A DNA stretch of 64,000 nucleotides from Escherichia phage ph0011, in sequence record OP557969.1; one strand, 5' to 3'. Positions 3,813 through 61,142 of the stretch are shown here, piece after piece. Both the position numbers and the translations under genes were made by a program. The first letter of the stretch is position 1; the number at the start of each line of letters is the position of its first letter. A model generated the notes under the pieces. The model was not told the origin of the DNA, made no database searches, and saw only the letters and a program-made list of their open reading frames with translations.

Positions 3813-5973
<2,161 letters not shown>

Positions 5974-14629: not shown

Positions 14630-15606
14630 CACGTACACAGAAGGAAATACACATGACCACACTATGGACTGAAAAATATCGCCCACAAACAATGGAAGAT
14701 TATGTATCAAAAAATGATGCTCTACGTCAGAAAATGGAAGAATGGATTAAAACTGGCGACATTCCACATATTGGTTTTTTTGGCCCAGCAGGAACTGGTA
14801 AAACATCTGCAATTAAAGTACTTATTAATGGTTTGGTTCAGAACGGACACCTCGACCCAAGTGACGTAACCACACTTAATATGTCAGATGAAGGTATTGA
14901 TGCTGTGCGTGATAAAATTGATGCCGCAGCAAAACTATCATGCTTTGGACGATATCGTATTTTTGTTCTTGAAGAAATGGAACAAATGAACCATAAAGCA
15001 CAAGGTAGCTTGAAGCGTGTCATGGAAGACTATCATGAAAATGCTCGCTTTATTTTAACAAGTAATGAACCACATAAAATTCAAAAACCTATTATCTCTC
15101 GCGTTCAAGTCATTACAATTGAAAAACATGACATGGAACAGTTCATGACAAGAATTTATAATATCCTTCTCGCTGAAGGTGTTGATCTGAGTAGTGATGA
15201 TAGTGTTGAACAAGTTCAAAAGTACATCAATGCTTCATATCCAGATTTTCGTAAAACGCTAAACGTATTGCAAAGTTCAGTTGTTGATGGTAAACTAGTC
15301 AAACTTGAGGATAGTATTGAAAATTCTGCCGGATATCGCACTGCAATCATTGATGCGTTGAAGGCAGGAAATATCCGTCAAATGCGAGAGCAAATTGTTC
15401 AATCTATCCCTGATGATGAAATGGATGCATTTTTTTCGTACTTGTACCGAAATGCGGAAATGTTCAGTACTGACGAAATCACACTGATGAAGATTAAAGT
15501 TAAAATTCGTGATGCTGTTGTTAAGCAAGCAACAGTATCCGACCGTGAAATGAATCTTAGTGCATTGTTGTGTGAGATTGATCTAATTTGTTCGGGGAAC
15601 ATGTAA
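14617..15606 (+). CDS. 44: clamp loader large subunit (gp44-like, RFC-type AAA+)
   Basis: WTEKYRPQT...PHIGFFGPAGTGKTS (Walker A), FVLEEME (Walker B), SRVQVI sensor; likely start ~14653. Confidence 0.8.
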   Translation: MDSITRTQKEIHMTTLWTEKYRPQTMEDYVSKNDALRQKMEEWIKTGDIPHIGFFGPAGTGKTSAIKVLINGLVQNGHLDPSDVTTLNMSDEGIDAVRDKIDAAAKLSCFGRYRIFVLEEMEQMNHKAQGSLKRVMEDYHENARFILTSNEPHKIQKPIISRVQVITIEKHDMEQFMTRIYNILLAEGVDLSSDDSVEQVQKYINASYPDFRKTLNVLQSSVVDGKLVKLEDSIENSAGYRTAIIDALKAGNIRQMREQIVQSIPDDEMDAFFSYLYRNAEMFSTDEITLMKIKVKIRDAVVKQATVSDREMNLSALLCEIDLICSGNM

Positions 15607-16232
15607 TGAAGCCACGTTGTATTGTTTTTGATTGTGACGAAGTTCTATTAGACCACATCGGTATGCTTTCAGAGTATGTTAAACAAACTTATAACATAAC
15701 CCCATCAACACCATATCCAACAGAATATGACCTATCAGATTGGTTGGGTGTTCCTCAAACTGAAGTTAAAAAAATTCTTGAACGTTTCAATCAACAATCG
15801 TATTTGTTTGGATTGTTAAAACCTGTTGAACCAAATACTGTTGATATTGTTCAAGAATTACGTGACCGTTTTTATAAAGAAAAGTTTGTGGTTCTGACAA
15901 AATGTGGTAAGAAAGGATATGGTGAAGTTTTGCGTAATGTGAATCTCATGCGAGAATTTGGTGAAAATTGTTTTGATGAGATCATCATCATTGAAATGGA
16001 TGAAACAAAGAAAAAGGCATTGGAGGATTTACAAGAGAAGTACGATGTGAAATTGATGATTGATGATTATATCAACAACATTGAAACTGCATTGGAGCTT
16101 GGTATTCCTTCAGTTATGATGGGATGCTCACATAATACTGCATACAGGAACAGTCGTGATTTTGAATATATCGAGAACTGGACCGAGCTTAGACTGAAAA
16201 TTTATTCAGTTCTGGGTAAATATTATAAATAA
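15588..16232 (+). CDS. HAD-superfamily hydrolase (possible 5'(3')-deoxyribonucleotidase)
   Basis: 214 aa; N-terminal VFDCDEVLLD fits HAD motif I (DxDx[TV]); occupies the slot where T4 has gene 62. Confidence 0.45.
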   Translation: MFGEHVMKPRCIVFDCDEVLLDHIGMLSEYVKQTYNITPSTPYPTEYDLSDWLGVPQTEVKKILERFNQQSYLFGLLKPVEPNTVDIVQELRDRFYKEKFVVLTKCGKKGYGEVLRNVNLMREFGENCFDEIIIIEMDETKKKALEDLQEKYDVKLMIDDYINNIETALELGIPSVMMGCSHNTAYRNSRDFEYIENWTELRLKIYSVLGKYYK

Positions 16233-16245
16233 TACTTTTTAAATT

Positions 16246-16272
16246 AAGGGGTTTGTTTCAAACCCCTTTTGT
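16246..16272 (+). terminator. rho-independent terminator
   Basis: AAGGGGTTTGTTTCAAACCCCTTTTG. Confidence 0.7.
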
Positions 16273-43592: not shown

Positions 43593-43606
43593 ATAACGGG
43601 ACAACA

Positions 43607-43722
<116 letters not shown>

Positions 43723-43729
43723 CAAAAGA

Positions 43730-43803
43730 CGGGGTATAGCACAATTGGATAGTGCAAGAGAATTCTAATCTCTAGGTTGGGGGTTCAAGTCCCTCTACCT
43801 CGG
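43730..43803 (+). tRNA. tRNA-Arg(TCT): tRNA-Arg (anticodon TCT)
   Basis: Acceptor CGGGGTA/TACCTCG (one G-U), D-arm GCAC..GTGC, anticodon stem AGAGA/TCTCT with loop ATTCTAA, T-loop TTCAAGT. Confidence 0.7.
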
Positions 43804-43827
43804 CCTACTTTAATTAAAGGTTAAACC

Positions 43828-43992
43828 ATGACGCATGAAGAATGGATGAATGACATTAATTTTAGATATGCAGGTATCGGTAACTGGAGAAAGTATCATT
43901 GGGAAATCATATCAGACCCAGCAGAATACGATAAACTTATGAATCATGAAGTGTATCCGTGGTTCTTTATTGAAATAATGGTACGATTATGA
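43828..43992 (+). CDS. MTHEEW-family mini-protein
   Basis: Own reading: 54 aa MTHEEWMNDINFRYAGIGNWRKYHWEII...; below track cutoff. Confidence 0.45.
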   Translation: MTHEEWMNDINFRYAGIGNWRKYHWEIISDPAEYDKLMNHEVYPWFFIEIMVRL

Positions 43993-44149
43993 CACATGAA
44001 GAATGGATGAATGACATTAATTTTAGATATTCGGGTATCGGTAAATGGCTAAAGTATCATTGGGAATTCATTTCAGAGCCACATCTGTATGATAAACTTA
44101 TCAACGATTCTGCATATAAAATGTACTTAATTGAACTACTGGTACGAAT

Positions 44150-44153
<4 letters not shown>
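43989..44153 (+). CDS. MTHEEW-family mini-protein
   Basis: Own reading: 54 aa MTHEEWMNDINFRYSGIGKWLKYHWEFI...; ATGA overlap. Confidence 0.45.
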
Positions 44154-44322
<169 letters not shown>

Positions 44323-44325
44323 AAG

Positions 44326-45038
<713 letters not shown>

Positions 45039-45044
45039 GATAAA

Positions 45045-45078
<34 letters not shown>

Positions 45079-45084
45079 GAATTC

Positions 45085-45440
45085 CACAATCAGACGTATA
45101 TGGTGTAAGTTACGTCGATGCAATCCAGAACAAGATCTCTGGTACTCTAGGAAGTGGTTAATGTTAACCTAGACGGGTTTGATAATTGGACGATAGGCAA
45201 TTATTACTTGACTAGCAGGTTTAAACTAGAGGTGACTATCCTTCACCAAACTGGAAAACCGGATGGACTTTTATTTAAAAGGGTAAGGCGTGGAAATATG
45301 TTTACAGTAGTTGCTTTTAGTAGCCTGTACGCCCCACGTCAAGGTAGCCGAAAGGCAAGTTAAAACGGGTGGTTATAAAGCTGAATTAACAGCGGCGTTT
45401 AAAAGCGTCACCATCCATTTTTTTTAATTAAAGTTGGTGA
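45085..45440 (+). ncRNA. candidate non-coding (stable RNA?) transcript downstream of repeat promoter copy 3
   Basis: ~355 nt with no convincing ORF, higher GC than surroundings, directly after a promoter and ending near a T-run (CACCATCCATTTTTTTT). Confidence 0.3.
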
Positions 45441-45441
45441 T

Positions 45442-46080
<639 letters not shown>

Positions 46081-46099
46081 CTTTTTAATTTAAAAGTAC

Positions 46100-46127
46100 T
46101 TTACTGTAGTGTTTAGTACCGTATAAT
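46100..46127 (+). promoter_or_regulatory. possible promoter (TTTACT-16-TATAAT) upstream of HNH gene
   Basis: AGTACTTTACTGTAGTGTTTAGTACCGTATAATG; weaker -35. Confidence 0.35.
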
Positions 46128-46153
46128 GTAAACAAAAGGATAAAATAAAACTC

Positions 46154-46678
<525 letters not shown>

Positions 46679-46700
46679 TTAAAAAATCAGTACTTTATTA

Positions 46701-46914
<214 letters not shown>

Positions 46915-46937
46915 TCATTGCACTCTTCTCTTGTAAT

Positions 46938-47085
<148 letters not shown>

Positions 47086-47106
47086 TTCACATGATATAGG
47101 GTACAC

Positions 47107-47364
<258 letters not shown>

Positions 47365-47380
47365 ATAAAAAGAACGAAAA

Positions 47381-47422
<42 letters not shown>

Positions 47423-47432
47423 GATTCCCGAT

Positions 47433-47559
<127 letters not shown>

Positions 47560-47578
47560 AGAGGTACTTCGAGTATGC

Positions 47579-47634
<56 letters not shown>

Positions 47635-47653
47635 AACTACTTTTTAATTGACG

Positions 47654-47704
<51 letters not shown>

Positions 47705-47721
47705 TACAACCGACAATGACT

Positions 47722-47788
<67 letters not shown>

Positions 47789-47963
47789 GAAGAAACTGCT
47801 AAACAGCTTGAAGAACTTTGTAGTGCTGCACCGATGCCGACTCTTGGCTTAATCAAGTTGATGCGTCGAAATAAGAAAAATTTAAAATAATACAGTAAGA
47901 TGGCCTCCCCTCCATATCATGAGAGTATAGAGACTTGTTGGTTATCTTACTTTTAAACAAACT

Positions 47964-48037
47964 GCCTCAATAGCAAAATTGGTAATGCACACGTTTTGTA
48001 AGCGTGAGATTTTTCCGTTCGAGTCGGAATTGGGGCA
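47964..48037 (+). tRNA. tRNA-Thr(TGT): tRNA-Thr (anticodon TGT)
   Basis: Acceptor GCCTCAA/TTGGGGC (one G-U), D-arm GCA..TGC, anticodon stem CACGT/GCGTG loop TTTGTAA, T-arm TTCCG-TTCGAGT-CGGAA. Confidence 0.65.
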
Positions 48038-48054
48038 CAAAATAAAGGCACACT

Positions 48055-57765: not shown

Positions 57766-58731
57766 GTGAAAAAACTTGATTTGAATACAATTGCAGATGA
57801 AGTTCTGGATGAATGCTTTGGTAATGAAGAAGTGAATACGCTGGATGCGTTAGAACCAGTTCAAGAAAAAGATAACATTGACGAGAAAAATAATGGTAAT
57901 TTCAAGTTTAATATTAGTCTTAAGCGACCAGCAAATGTAACAAATGAAGATATTATTCGTGATATTCAAGCAGGTATTAACGTAAAGAAAAATACTGAAC
58001 TATTAGTTCGTTATAATTACGGCTTGATTATTGATGTTGCAAGTAAATGCACGTGTTATATTCCATTTGAAGATAAGATTTCATATGGTATCGAGGGATT
58101 CATGCGAGCATTAAAAACATTTGACCTTAGTAAGAATGTAAAGTTCGCTACGTATGCATCGTCAAGTATCTATATGACTGTATACAATGAAAGTTCAGAT
58201 GCTAATCATCTGGTCCATTTCCCTCGTTACATGAGTGTTAATAAGATACAAGTGAAACGCTTCTGTCATAATTATGAGCGTCAGCATGGTTGCCGTCCTA
58301 CACCAGAAATTATTTCTGAAGAGACTGGTATTGAAATCCAGCACGTTAAGAATTGTTTATTATTCCAAAGTGAATATACTTCACTGGATGCACCATTGGA
58401 TGGTGTTTCTGATGGGACGATGAGTGATATTCTGCATTCATCTGAAGGTGATTATAATCTTAATGTTGACAGTATTCGTGCACCGTTGCGTTATACCATC
58501 AACGAACTAACTAATGAGTTGAGTGCTAAGGAATGTGAGATTATTCAACGTGTTCATGGGTTAGGTGAATTTAATCCTGAAACACTACGTGAAATTGCTG
58601 ATAGTGGTTTTATCGATGACAACGGTAAGTGTGTAAAATCCAGATCTTCGGTTCATCGTAAATACAGTGATGCTCTTAAGAAACTCAAGAAATTAGTGCT
58701 TGCTAAAGGGTACGAATACGAAGATTTCTAA
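57766..58731 (+). CDS. sigma-70 family RNA polymerase sigma factor
   Basis: 321 aa; GTG start with AGGAGA RBS; region-2-like YGLIIDVA...ISYGIEGFMRALKTFD...KFATYASSSI and C-terminal HTH-like region; followed by terminator. Confidence 0.65.
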   Translation: MKKLDLNTIADEVLDECFGNEEVNTLDALEPVQEKDNIDEKNNGNFKFNISLKRPANVTNEDIIRDIQAGINVKKNTELLVRYNYGLIIDVASKCTCYIPFEDKISYGIEGFMRALKTFDLSKNVKFATYASSSIYMTVYNESSDANHLVHFPRYMSVNKIQVKRFCHNYERQHGCRPTPEIISEETGIEIQHVKNCLLFQSEYTSLDAPLDGVSDGTMSDILHSSEGDYNLNVDSIRAPLRYTINELTNELSAKECEIIQRVHGLGEFNPETLREIADSGFIDDNGKCVKSRSSVHRKYSDALKKLKKLVLAKGYEYEDF

Positions 58732-58738
58732 ATTGTAA

Positions 58739-58765
58739 AGGTTGGCATATGCCAACCTTTTTTAT
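58739..58765 (+). terminator. rho-independent terminator
   Basis: AGGTTGGCATATGCCAACCT + TTTTTA after sigma-factor gene. Confidence 0.75.
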
Positions 58766-58769
58766 TGGG

Positions 58770-59410
58770 ACAAAGCATAAATATATGATATAATAATTAT
58801 GTACAATCCTGTTGAATGCAGAAATGCATATAAATTAGAACCTGATCCTATCGAAAACGTAGATGGCAGATGAGCAGTTCAGCAGTGCGATGAGCAGAAG
58901 AAACCCGTCAGAAGTGGGCATAGTTTGAACCCCTCACGGCAATGCGGCTCAATAAAGAACTCCGATAAGCATACAGAGAGTTCCTAGATAGACATATAAG
59001 GAATCACACCTTACCAGATTTGCTAAGGGAGTCTTGAAATAAGACAGCTTGAACTTTGATTGTATAGAGTTTCAAGTGAGTGCTGGGATGAAAAGACCAG
59101 TGACCGTTGCATATGACCGTGATAGGGAGAAACAGAGCAACCCGCTTCCGTTTGTGATTGATCATTTTTACAATATAGATCCGTCCAAAATTCACGATAC
59201 AATAATATCCGATGCCATCAGCGTCAAGAAGAGACTTAATTGTCTCTTTTTTATTACTTTCATTCCCCTGTGGGGGATGAAATAGTCCTCAACAAATCCC
59301 GTCAAGTATTAAAAGTCCTAGACAGTTATGAAACATTCGCGTATAATACGTAGTATTAGAAGCGAACAGACATCTCGAAGAGATGGATGATTAACTATTA
59401 AGGAATATCC
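58770..59410 (+). ncRNA. GC-rich non-coding island, candidate structured RNA
   Basis: ~640 nt without a convincing ORF (track ORFs on both strands conflict, TTG start); locally GC-rich by eye; several stable hairpins. Confidence 0.3.
59229..59253 (+). terminator. terminator-like hairpin within non-coding island
   Basis: AGAGACTTAATTGTCTCT + TTTTTATT; followed by second hairpin TTCATTCCCCTGTGGGGGATGAA. Confidence 0.5.
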
Positions 59411-59411
59411 A

Positions 59412-59621
59412 ATGAATTCAATCATATTTTTAGTAGTAGCTTTTTCTGTTAATTCCGGTGTACAAATAACCCCAATGAATTCCATGAATCAATGTATAGC
59501 AGTTCGTGATAGTACATACGAACAAGTAAACAAAAATATTAGAATGACAGTTAGTAAAGAACAAATGTGGTGTTACAATAGTAATACTAACGCAAAGCTT
59601 ATTGTAGGACAAACTCAATGA
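59412..59621 (+). CDS. small secreted hypothetical protein
   Basis: 69 aa; N-terminal hydrophobic signal-like segment. Confidence 0.4.
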   Translation: MNSIIFLVVAFSVNSGVQITPMNSMNQCIAVRDSTYEQVNKNIRMTVSKEQMWCYNSNTNAKLIVGQTQ

Positions 59622-59848
59622 GTTATGGTGTTCGTTTTGAGATTCGCTCTATTGTTATTAATGATAATAAGAAAGCATCGTTAGATAGTGACATACGTGA
59701 AATTTATCTATCATGTATCCGTGCAAAATCTGAAGCAGATGCATTAGCACAAATGTATATTTTTAACTTTTCAAACGGATTTAATTTGGAACGAGTTATT
59801 GAAGTGAAAAAAGTACTTATAGGTTGTAGCATAGAAGGAATCGTGTAA
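59618..59848 (+). CDS. hypothetical protein
   Basis: 76-aa ORF, ATGA overlap. Confidence 0.4.
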   Translation: MSYGVRFEIRSIVINDNKKASLDSDIREIYLSCIRAKSEADALAQMYIFNFSNGFNLERVIEVKKVLIGCSIEGIV

Positions 59849-59849
59849 A

Positions 59850-60638
59850 ATGTGCACTATAGATGAATTAATTAGACGGAATTCAAAATACTACAAACCA
59901 TCAGAAATTGTAGGCAACATTACTAAATCAGAGTTCGGACCAAATACACGAAAACTCATTCATGTAATGTTACGTGATGGCTTTAAATGTGATTGTTGTG
60001 GTGAATCCAATGTGGTATTCACTTTACATAAGCACAGTACTAAAGAACGTTATAAATTCAGACCTTATGTACTTAAAGGGAAACGCCTTGTACGCATGAC
60101 GTTAGACCATAATGTACTGGACTGTCTTCAGGGTGGTAATGACAAAGAAAACATGACTGCACTGTGTGAGGATTGCAATGCATTACGCCAGCATAAATTT
60201 GCTGAGTACAGTGAGTTTAAGTTCTGGTATCATAACGCAGATCGTTCCATTGAACCTGACGTTAACTACTGCTTTATTGAGTACATTAAGAATGCAAAAG
60301 ATACATACATTCTTAAATCAATGTCACCTATTACAGTGTTTCCTGAGAATCTATTCACTACATTAAAGAATAGTTTTATGGTAGGTGATATTGATGCATT
60401 CAAGTATTTTGACAAAGGTGCAAAACATTTTGAAGTTCAATGTCTTAGTACTGCACTATGTGAACTTATTAAAATTTACATAAAAGATTATTTGGGTATT
60501 GACAATGTACGCGTACCAGAGTATACTTTTTCTATTGATTTCGATTGTGAATCAATCAAAGAGTTTGGGATTCTTTTCAATAAACAAATAGAACTTGCAA
60601 TTCAAAACGAAATCAAGTACTATAATACTAACATTTAA
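59850..60638 (+). CDS. HNH-family endonuclease
   Basis: 262 aa; CDCCG...H...LDHNVLDCLQGGNDKENMTALCEDCNALRQH (HNH motif with Cys pairs). Confidence 0.6.
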   Translation: MCTIDELIRRNSKYYKPSEIVGNITKSEFGPNTRKLIHVMLRDGFKCDCCGESNVVFTLHKHSTKERYKFRPYVLKGKRLVRMTLDHNVLDCLQGGNDKENMTALCEDCNALRQHKFAEYSEFKFWYHNADRSIEPDVNYCFIEYIKNAKDTYILKSMSPITVFPENLFTTLKNSFMVGDIDAFKYFDKGAKHFEVQCLSTALCELIKIYIKDYLGIDNVRVPEYTFSIDFDCESIKEFGILFNKQIELAIQNEIKYYNTNI

Positions 60639-61046: not shown

Positions 61047-61142
61047 GGATGCAACATGACTTTAGAAATTGTCTTTGGTATTCTTAGCTTAGTAGTCTGT
61101 GTGGGTTGGTTTGGGTATCTGATGATTTTTGGTGATTAATAC

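Follow-up and report, generated by a model that had tools for sequence, protein, structure and literature searches.

The described systems closest in kind to the element reported here are ROOL and GOLLD, large RNAs encoded by phages and prophages. ROOL is found mostly in Firmicutes and in rumen phages, near tRNA islands, and we know of no GOLLD RNA that forms a multi-copy gene family within one genome. ROOL is abundant and of unknown function, and all GOLLD RNAs conserve the 3′ region, with weaker conservation of the 5′ region (PMC12286853). In the jumbo phage PA5oct, four non-coding transcripts of 236–619 nucleotides (nt), designated ncRNA001–004, have been defined by RNA sequencing, and two of them are highly expressed (PMC7318152). 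Here we describe an RNA gene in a 64,000 nt stretch of Escherichia phage ph0011 (sequence record OP557969.1; hereafter the window), which is Asteriusvirus-like (121Q/PBECO4) jumbo coliphage DNA with approximately 86–88% identity to UE-S1, 121Q and PBECO4, all of about 350 kb. The gene occupies positions 58801–59306 of the plus strand, between a sigma-factor gene and a series of small open reading frames (ORFs), and belongs to a previously undescribed family with 3–5 diverged copies per RaK2-like jumbo phage, which constitutes a new family of large structured RNA genes. We consider it probable that the product is an independently transcribed, stable, trans-acting large structured non-coding RNA of approximately 450–505 nt, and that several gene copies are kept for dosage.

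The sigma-factor gene extends from 57766 to 58731 and the next conserved ORF starts at 59412; no conserved ORF was found in the interval between them (58732–59411). A sequence-only reading of this region had proposed a GC-rich non-coding island at 58770–59410, representing either a structured RNA or a foreign insertion, behind a strong terminator of the sigma-factor gene. The terminator is present, with a stem at 58737–58760 followed by a T-run, and marks the upstream boundary outside the RNA. The G+C content is indeed raised, reaching 41.6% over 58803–59304 compared with 33.1% for the whole window; among 500 nt segments (standard deviation 2.9%) only 0.09% are as GC-rich, and the sole other region of the window that equals it is the tRNA cluster near 46.7 kb. 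The single-sequence fold had a z-score of −4.29 against 100 dinucleotide shuffles. The proposed extent captured the right region but was slightly too wide at its 3′ end, where it takes in the promoter of the next operon.

As the sequence-only reading had also noted, the island contains no convincing ORF. The two ORFs that it cited in this copy, at 59004–59195 on the minus strand (63 amino acids, aa) and at 59049–59285 on the plus strand (78 aa, TTG start), both exist and neither is conserved. Across 47 distinct full-length copies of the element no ORF was conserved in strand, position or length, the longest ORF per copy ranging from 28 to 90 aa, and stops and frameshifts interrupted the 59049–59285 frame in every other copy inspected, even the nearest ones. 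The variable sites showed no codon-position bias at any of three comparison depths (chi-square p = 0.49, 0.22 and 0.98), which answers the suggestion that 3 nt periodicity be checked. Neither ORF had a match in Pfam or PHROGs, unlike the neighbouring small ORFs from 59412 on, which matched PHROGs at 1.4e-31 and 1.2e-44.

A sensitive blastn search with the intergenic gap alone as query matched approximately 510 nt (58803–59313) at 277–298 places in 69–72 phage records, corresponding to 3–5 places per genome. Copies for comparative analysis were taken from annotated phage records, from viral, genome and metagenome collections searched with the pattern TAGNGAGAAACNGNNNNNNCCGCTTNCG, and from matches to an nhmmer profile; the search pattern was based on P12, the most conserved segment of the family. 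The element was present in all RaK2-like jumbo phages searched, comprising the genera Asteriusvirus, Mimasvirus, Eneladusvirus and Alcyoneusvirus, and the matching records are of RaK2-like phages named for Escherichia, Salmonella, Klebsiella, Cronobacter, Erwinia, Pectobacterium, Serratia, Yersinia and 'Xanthomonas'. Phage 121Q carries four copies at approximately 90.3, 192.8, 247.5 and 326.9 kb, all on one strand, and the window itself holds a single copy. Most copies were left unannotated by the depositors, some are overlaid with short hypothetical proteins, and in the UE-S1 record the first 158 nt are labelled 'repeat_region' at two loci. Relaxing the pattern to GAGAAACNGNNCAACCCGC added matches that we regard as chance, mostly in coding sequence, except for two further jumbo-phage copies. 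Pattern matches in Devosia and Saccharibacteria were also rejected as chance; the Devosia match consists of palindromes like repetitive extragenic palindromic (REP) sequences between two converging ORFs, taken to be mdh and sucC with no search of their families.

Comparison of the copies provided very strong covariation support for a common fold. RNAalifold predicted 70 pairs from 35 copies, of which 44 were compensatory, and mutual information with average product correction, calculated from a 49-copy alignment (A4), revealed four non-nested helices (T1, PKa, PKb and PKc) with complementary covariation. The curated structure contains 99 pairs in 19 helices when evaluated on 49 distinct copies. 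In this structure 93.3% of alignment cells are paired, compared with 36.8–45.1% when the partners are slid by 1–3 columns; double changes occur at 74 pairs (28–39 when slid) and the covariation score is 0.486 (0.065–0.096 when slid). None of 500 shuffles attained any of these three measures. Invariant and frequent G-U pairs assign the RNA to the plus strand. The RNA is organised in two domains (P2–P8 and P9–P13), in which no fewer than 15 nested helices are joined by the four non-nested ones, these being pseudoknots or tertiary helices; past the two domains it continues in a tail that comprises two small hairpins and a motif present in duplicate (Table 1). With the covariation, the lack of 3 nt periodicity and an interrupted 59049–59285 ORF that has no protein-family match, the structured RNA put forward in the sequence-only reading is strongly supported. 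Both stable hairpins singled out there were recovered, namely AGAGAC/GUCUCU at 59230–59247, followed by a T-run, and UUCAUUCCCC/GGGGGAUGAA at 59259–59281.

Table 1. The RNA gene, its structural elements and the adjoining transcription signals in the window (percentages are alignment cells paired; letter pairs with numbers are counts of copies).
Feature	Position	Strand	Sequence, support and remarks
Intrinsic terminator of upstream sigma-factor gene	58737–58765	+	stem plus T-run; terminator scan, sequence
RNA-gene promoter	58766–58794	+	TGGGACA-N13-TGATATAAT; −35-like TGGGACA 58766–58772, extended −10 TGATATAAT 58786–58794; promoter scan
RNA gene, full conserved extent	58801–59306	+	nhmmer family-profile match 58803–59304, E = 4e-121; alignments A1–A4
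P2, variable hairpin	58817–58828	+	UGCA/UGCA in this copy; 4/4 pairs compensatory; 75%
P3, hairpin	58841–58869	+	conserved loop CGAAAACGUAGA; 7/8 pairs with double changes; 92.5%
P4, hairpin	58874–58888	+	after conserved GAUGAG; one pair UA:21, CG:17, AU:11; 96%
P5	58891–58951	+	UGAGC 58891–58895 / GCUCA 58947–58951; 3/5 pairs compensatory; 100%
P6	58905–58908 / 58936–58939	+	CCGU/ACGG; inside P5, with variable inner hairpin; 99.5%
T1, tertiary helix	58942–58944 / 58993–58995	+	AUG/CAU; crosses P5; mutual information; one pair GC:31, AU:17; 98.6%
P7, hairpin	58957–58983	+	GAACU/AGUUC; 5/5 pairs compensatory; one pair GC:18, CG:11, UA:10, AU:7
PKa	58968–58970 / 59022–59024	+	AGC in P7 loop / GCU; pairs CG:34, AU:13 and GC:32, UA:8, AU:6
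P8, hairpin	58997–59013	+	UAAG/CUUA, after conserved GAUAGACAUA; 3/4 pairs compensatory; 96%
P9, 12 bp hairpin	59047–59076	+	10/12 pairs compensatory; loop AUUGUA forms PKb
PKb	59059–59064 / 59198–59203	+	AUUGUA in P9 loop / UACAAU; 6/6 pairs compensatory; 98%
P10, hairpin	59081–59102	+	UGCUG/CAGUG; one pair UA:29, CG:9, GC:6, AU:5; 98%
PKc	59106–59110 / 59137–59141	+	GUUGC / GCAAC in P12 loop; 5/5 pairs with double changes; 100%
P11	59118–59122 / 59192–59196	+	CGUGA/UCACG; closes P12 and P13; one pair CG:21, UA:16, AU:10; 98.8%
P12, hairpin	59125–59149	+	GGGAG/CUUCC; near-invariant 15 nt loop AAACAGAGCAACCCG; invariant G-U; 100%
P13	59151–59189	+	UUUG/CAAA; 4/4 pairs compensatory; carries optional hairpin module GAUUGAUCAUUUUUACAAUAUAGAUCCGU (59156–59184)
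P15, hairpin	59211–59228	+	GAUGC 59211–59215 / GCGUC 59221–59225; per-sequence folds GACGA/UCGUC, GAUGC/GCGUC, GAAGA/UCUUC
Repeat R1	59217–59228	+	AUCAGCGUCAAG; includes 3′ strand of P15
Internal intrinsic terminator	59230–59252	+	AGAGAC-UUAAUU-GUCUCU plus U-run; terminator scan; 5/6 pairs compensatory; optional insert
P14, G/C-rich hairpin	59259–59281	+	UUCAUUCCCC-UGU-GGGGGAUGAA; in all copies; −10 to −22 kcal/mol; 3′ strand GGGGGGAUGA conserved in sequence
Conserved 3′ tail	59282–59306	+	AUAGUCCUCAACAAAUCCCGUCAAG; ends in R2; unpaired in per-sequence folds
Repeat R2	59295–59306	+	AAUCCCGUCAAG; in unpaired tail
Sigma-70-type promoter	59319–59347	+	TAGACA-17-TATAAT; 11/12 match, promoter scan; outside the RNA

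The low pairing of P2 is accounted for by poor alignment at this hairpin. The 3′ strand of PKa lies directly before an invariant UAAGGGAG, and an optional module of approximately 40 nt has two alternative sites, one in P13 and one after UAAGGGAG; a copy may use either site, both or neither. The loop of P14 is 3–4 nt long and is not a T-loop. Support for a helix that would close the molecule (P1, between UUGRC at the 5′ end and R2) was found in some paralog types only, with a mean z of −0.64. The two repeats of the tail occur as twin variants: both contain CUUCAAG in RaK2, CGACAA in Serratia sp., ACGAAG in the divergent group and CGUCAG in Mimasvirus and Eneladusvirus. Since R1 is part of the P15 hairpin and R2 is unpaired, the 5′ strand of P15 could pair with either repeat, in its own molecule or in another; a second possibility is that a single lineage-specific factor binds both repeats.

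Five divergent metagenomic copies that had been left out when the structure was derived were used as an out-of-sample check. Four of these keep P9, P10, P11, PKb and PKc with different sequences, PKb being formed by CUCAUAU/AUAUGAG, UUUGUGU/ACACAAA or UUUACGU/ACGUAAA. In the fifth (L078; OEQO01000615.1, 692–853) the P9 loop UUUGCGU mismatches its PKb partner AUAUGAG; the 5′ part of this sequence is like L061 and its 3′ part like L064, and a chimeric assembly, a recombination event or pseudogene status could account for it. A 3′-domain alignment of 31 sequences, including three of the divergent copies, was 95.4% paired compared with 37–50% when slid. What the divergent copies share with the others at the sequence level is limited to this 3′ domain, their 5′ domain being larger and different, with a few motifs in common.

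The promoter of the RNA gene lies directly upstream of the conserved element and had been missed in the sequence-only reading. The promoter reported there near 59340 is a real match to the sigma-70 type, but it is situated downstream of the element and most likely serves the small genes that begin at 59412. Conserved sequence begins 7–9 nt past the −10 of the RNA-gene promoter, and transcription is expected to start near 58801–58803. An extended −10 (TGnTAYAMT) is present in 42 of the 46 copies with upstream sequence, and most copies also have a −35-like TGGGACA, TGGAACA or TGAAACG; in some, a hairpin and U-run are placed between the promoter and the RNA. The window contains six matches to this promoter class against 0.24 expected. 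One of these (CGGGACA-N13-TGATATAAT, 43597–43625) is located 10 nt upstream of tRNA-Ser (43636), the first tRNA gene of its cluster, and the RNA gene and the tRNA genes have a common promoter class; the remaining matches are at 81, 6796, 31235 and 38462. TGAAACG is the −35 of a second, 'divergent RpoD-like' promoter class of phages CBB and GAP32 (PMC5259590). As an extended −10 makes a good −35 dispensable, we infer transcription by the host polymerase, and the −35 variant may give additional phage-specific control. Each copy would form its own transcription unit. The internal terminator is present in 32 of 49 copies and missing from the other 17, and transcripts are predicted either to stop there or to read through into the conserved tail, giving an RNA of approximately 450 nt if it ends at the terminator (about 59252) and approximately 505 nt if it extends through R2. 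We also observed that many Mimasvirus and Eneladusvirus copies (L004, L005, L016, L023, L025 and L035) are followed, approximately 60–160 nt past the RNA, by a conserved stretch of approximately 100 nt. It holds ATTCTTTGACATTCGAAGAATGGCAAATC, in which TTGACA is part of an inverted repeat, as well as several GTACA.AACGAA motifs, and may be a regulated promoter repeated along with the RNA gene.

A scan of the window against Rfam 15 (4227 models) at gathering thresholds returned seven tRNAs only. At 58500–59700 a permissive scan yielded nothing but sub-threshold terminator look-alikes, and permissive scans gave no consistent match at 16 homologous loci that included RaK2, the bacterial islands and divergent copies. 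The models covered included ROOL, GOLLD, OLE, HEARO, transfer-messenger RNA (tmRNA), RNase P, 6S, group I and II introns, hammerhead and riboswitches, and the outcome of the Rfam check suggested in the sequence-only reading is that no family matches any copy. ARAGORN found only tRNAs in the window and no tRNA or tmRNA at the element, and in the literature on jumbo-phage repeats, non-coding RNAs and large RNAs we found no description of it. The RNA resembles ROOL in being large (approximately 500–600 nt in ROOL), in its several pseudoknots, in being encoded by phages and prophages without a known protein partner, and in its setting in a GC-rich intergenic island. However, no copy gave a match to the ROOL model, even with E values of 5–10 allowed, and the helices and motifs differ. 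The jumbo-phage RNA is also enterobacterial, is present in 3–5 copies per genome and lies approximately 11 kb from the tRNA cluster, and whereas ROOL is an octameric cage, the present RNA gave no sign of multimerisation, a search for covarying palindromic loops being negative. With GOLLD it shares the phage and prophage context and the two-domain layout, and its divergent T4-like copies keep, at the sequence level, the 3′ domain only; in contrast, GOLLD is larger (often more than 800 nt), sometimes has embedded tRNAs and gives no Rfam match here. The likeness to both is one of kind, resting on phage context, a length of about 500 nt and four pseudoknot or tertiary helices, and not homology, and membership of either family fails.

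A similar outcome was obtained for other known RNAs. The element is like tmRNA and RNase P RNA in its size class (350–500 nt), its pseudoknotted conserved core and a GC content above that of the surrounding genome, but it has no tRNA-like end, tag reading frame or P4-type pairing, and no Rfam model match. A segment resembling CR-V of RNase P (ACAGAGCAACCCGCUU) is a chance resemblance, as it forms P12 and PKc and has no model match, and the same applies to the hammerhead-like CAGAUGAG...GAAAC, for which the pairing pattern is unfit and no model match was found. A group I or II intron was rejected on the grounds that the element is intergenic, has its own promoter directly upstream and matches no intron model. 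Mimicry of 16S rRNA, with which the element shares GGGGAUGA, CGUCAAG and GAGCGCAACCC, was rejected for lack of collinear similarity; nhmmer --max at E up to 100 gave no match to E. coli rrnH 16S, 23S or 5S, and the shared 8-mers are scattered along the rRNA. The PA5oct non-coding RNAs come from a jumbo phage related to RaK2 and 121Q and are known as transcripts, not as structured or repeated elements, and homology to all four was rejected when neither nhmmer --max nor a 3′-domain covariance model produced a significant match. Separately, we noted at the 3′ end of ncRNA004 (L109, approximately 860–930) a hairpin, UUUCCUUCCC-AAAC-GGGGAGGAAA, and a nearby AUAGAUUCCGU that resemble P14 and the optional module.

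The copies within one genome are 64–75% identical, whereas orthologous copies in different genera are 82–87% identical; the duplications are therefore old and each type has been maintained. The flanking genes vary between copies and genomes, the element is always co-oriented with the genes downstream, and the copy adjacent to endonuclease VII is syntenic in UE-S1 and Salmonella phage 7t3. The window copy, although adjacent to the sigma-factor gene, is 88–91% identical to the endonuclease VII-adjacent copies of 121Q and UE-S1 and only 69–75% identical to their sigma-adjacent copies, indicating that one paralog overwrote another here through recombination. Phage TH47 has the same replacement at the sigma locus. 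The foreign insertion envisaged in the sequence-only reading did not hold up as stated, as the locus is filled in all Asteriusvirus relatives and the family is old in RaK2-like phages, with the qualifications that the sigma-locus copy has been replaced by the endonuclease VII-adjacent type and that the RNA gene has moved into a few bacterial islands.

Outside the RaK2-like phages, a few metagenomic T4-like contigs carry the element; on one of these, which bears a divergent copy, a T4-type portal and baseplate protein is encoded. The element also occurs in four bacterial genomes, in each case at the edge of an integrated island, and such islands are rare. A full copy in the Serratia fonticola chromosome has a large serine recombinase and two ParB/RepB-like genes as neighbours and borders on a duplicated rof. 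The near-identical rof genes (4775–5038 and 5227–5490 in L043) flank the RNA-bearing end of the island, and the pair looks like an attachment region duplicated by integration. Serratia sp. 2723 carries a full copy adjoining a serine recombinase, and a metagenome-assembled Enterobacteriaceae genome has one between a thiM riboswitch and a CI-like repressor. In E. coli a full copy occurs in an island adjoining ffs in 2 of 5426 complete genomes. In strain LR-29-1 (L092) this island includes 1.4 kb of unannotated DNA (14829–16258) in which the RNA gene (15001–15539) is followed by approximately 700 nt of further non-coding DNA, and it also encodes DUF4326, DUF488, a dual-OB protein and a resolvase. 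The four bacterial islands have no protein in common with each other or with the phage loci, and no copy was present among 72,556 plasmids.

The reading that we favour is that of an abundant, stable RNA that would act in trans and be supplied in sufficient dosage by its multiple gene copies. It might act through its compact tertiary fold, either as an RNA-only assembly or by binding a component that enterobacterial hosts share; a target of that kind is proposed because nothing else, and no linked protein gene in particular, travels with the RNA gene between phage and island contexts. Several points weigh against this reading. P14 and R2, which lie beyond the internal terminator, are kept in every copy, a poor fit to an RNA that ends there. 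Expression data for RaK2-like enterobacterial phages were not found in the literature, and transcription, ends and abundance are deduced from sequence only. The reading leaves unexplained why R1 and R2 change together in at least four independent lineages. No covarying palindromic loops were found that would form symmetric kissing interactions, and hence there is no pointer to symmetric multimers of the ROOL or GOLLD type. Neither a partner nor a target came to light. Finally, in CBB the TGAAACG −35 class is enriched upstream of DNA-synthesis genes (PMC5259590), which, together with 4–5 dispersed and co-oriented copies, fits replication origins as well.

Of the alternatives, the one that survives best, though we judge it unlikely, is that the copies are RNA-primed replication origins, at which the promoter would fire and the structured transcript would form a persistent hybrid with DNA near its 3′ tail and prime synthesis; on this view the bacterial islands that carry the element would be satellites or integrative elements with a borrowed replication function. 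RNA II of ColE1 is a folded primer transcript of approximately 550 nt, and T4 oriF and oriG consist of a middle promoter plus an R-loop. The element is comparable to RNA II as a promoter-driven folded transcript of similar length (approximately 500 nt), and to the T4 origins in being dispersed in several copies over a T4-like genome, with a phage-type promoter at each, but it has no sequence relation to either. The dispersal of 4–5 co-oriented copies over a genome of about 350 kb would suit origins, yet cumulative GC skew runs straight through the element without change. The −35 variant shared with the CBB class could likewise be read in this sense, but the promoter is no specific pointer to replication, because the same class also drives tRNA genes. 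An invariant G-run and a conserved unpaired tail are present at the 3′ end, but in 32 of 49 copies a terminator precedes that tail. The direct repeats R1 and R2 vary by phage lineage in the manner of iterons, and the Serratia fonticola island has a recombinase and two ParB/RepB-like proteins and no replicase; the lack of copies in plasmids is a further point against origins. The fold is far more elaborate than those of ColE1 RNA II and the T4 origins, and four covarying pseudoknots with many invariant unpaired nucleotides over 450 nt exceed the known needs of a primer RNA.

We regard as improbable that the element is a selfish or mobile RNA-encoding element, or a template RNA, in which R1 and R2 would serve template switching or site-specific cleavage and joining. 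Such an element would account for the multiple copies and the spread into islands. In its favour are the concerted evolution of the two repeats, the occurrence in phages, a prophage-like element and small islands without common proteins, the replacement of the window-locus copy by another paralog type, and the optional module at alternative sites. However, the positions of the copies are syntenic across genera, as exemplified by the endonuclease VII neighbour in UE-S1 and Salmonella phage 7t3, and the paralogs are old. The copies have no consistent association with a reverse transcriptase, transposase or homing endonuclease, and inverted repeats of at least 40 nt were not found in the window. 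An ORF for an HNH endonuclease of 262 aa is located at 59850–60638, approximately 550 nt downstream of the RNA, but it is not repeated with other copies; its counterparts near these are same-locus orthologs only, plus a weak match (32%) upstream of the RaK2 copy.

Slightly less credible again is a role in cis, in which each copy would control the genes that follow it as a leader, riboswitch or processive antiterminator. The terminator inside a conserved structured element, with conserved sequence beyond it, speaks for such a device, and a switch in which R1 and R2 compete for the 5′ strand of P15 is conceivable, but 17 of the 49 copies have no terminator to regulate. The constant orientation with respect to the downstream genes agrees with this idea, but the genes themselves differ among copies and genomes, the islands have unrelated neighbour genes, and in the window the downstream genes have a strong promoter of their own. 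At 450 nt and with four pseudoknots, the element is also far above known leaders in size. A small protein gene in either of the overlapping 63 and 78 aa frames, or repeated non-functional DNA, is already refuted in spite of the hypothetical proteins that some depositors have drawn over homologous copies, given the interrupted frames described above and the compensatory base-pair changes, which signify selection on the RNA fold.

Elsewhere in the window we recorded several features of the seven-gene tRNA cluster (43636–48038). One of its members is an unusual tRNA-Ser with anticodon ACT (46740–46831, ARAGORN). A promoter-like repeat of 42–45 nt with a near-identical spacer (CTTGACTAAATAGTTCAGTACTGTATAATG) occurs among the tRNA genes at 44316, 44738, 45039, 45798 and 46690, with a variant at 61142, and directly after tRNA-Arg a 161 nt unit is tandemly duplicated at 43809–44130 (76% identity).

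Elaborate large RNAs backed by covariation are rare in bacteria and phages, and those known are ribozymes, the cores of ribonucleoproteins, or RNAs such as OLE, ROOL and GOLLD with surprising structures. More tentatively, the jumbo-phage RNA could define, as its first member, a new class of large ornate RNAs, and could be the first known to be kept as a family of 3–5 paralogs in one phage genome. It might then be a ribozyme, or an RNA-only or ribonucleoprotein machine, directed at a conserved process of the host, for instance translation or RNA metabolism, while R1 and R2 would provide docking or strand-swap sites, used either in self-assembly or by a partner specific to the lineage; as a joint proposition that takes in the new class, the multi-gene family, the ribozyme or machine and the docking role of the repeats, we hold this to be possible but doubtful. 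If the copies were replication origins after all, they would locate the origins of the RaK2-like phage group. The annotation of approximately 70 deposited records, which leave the copies blank or under spurious 'hypothetical proteins', can be corrected. The phages that bear the RNA infect E. coli, Salmonella and Klebsiella, and isolates exist (121Q, PBECO4, phAPEC6, RaK2 and GAP32), which makes experiments feasible. The multi-copy organisation with preservation of distinct paralogs, the promoter class shared with tRNA genes and the transfer into bacterial islands suggest a high-dosage or diversified role for this RNA in jumbo-phage infection.

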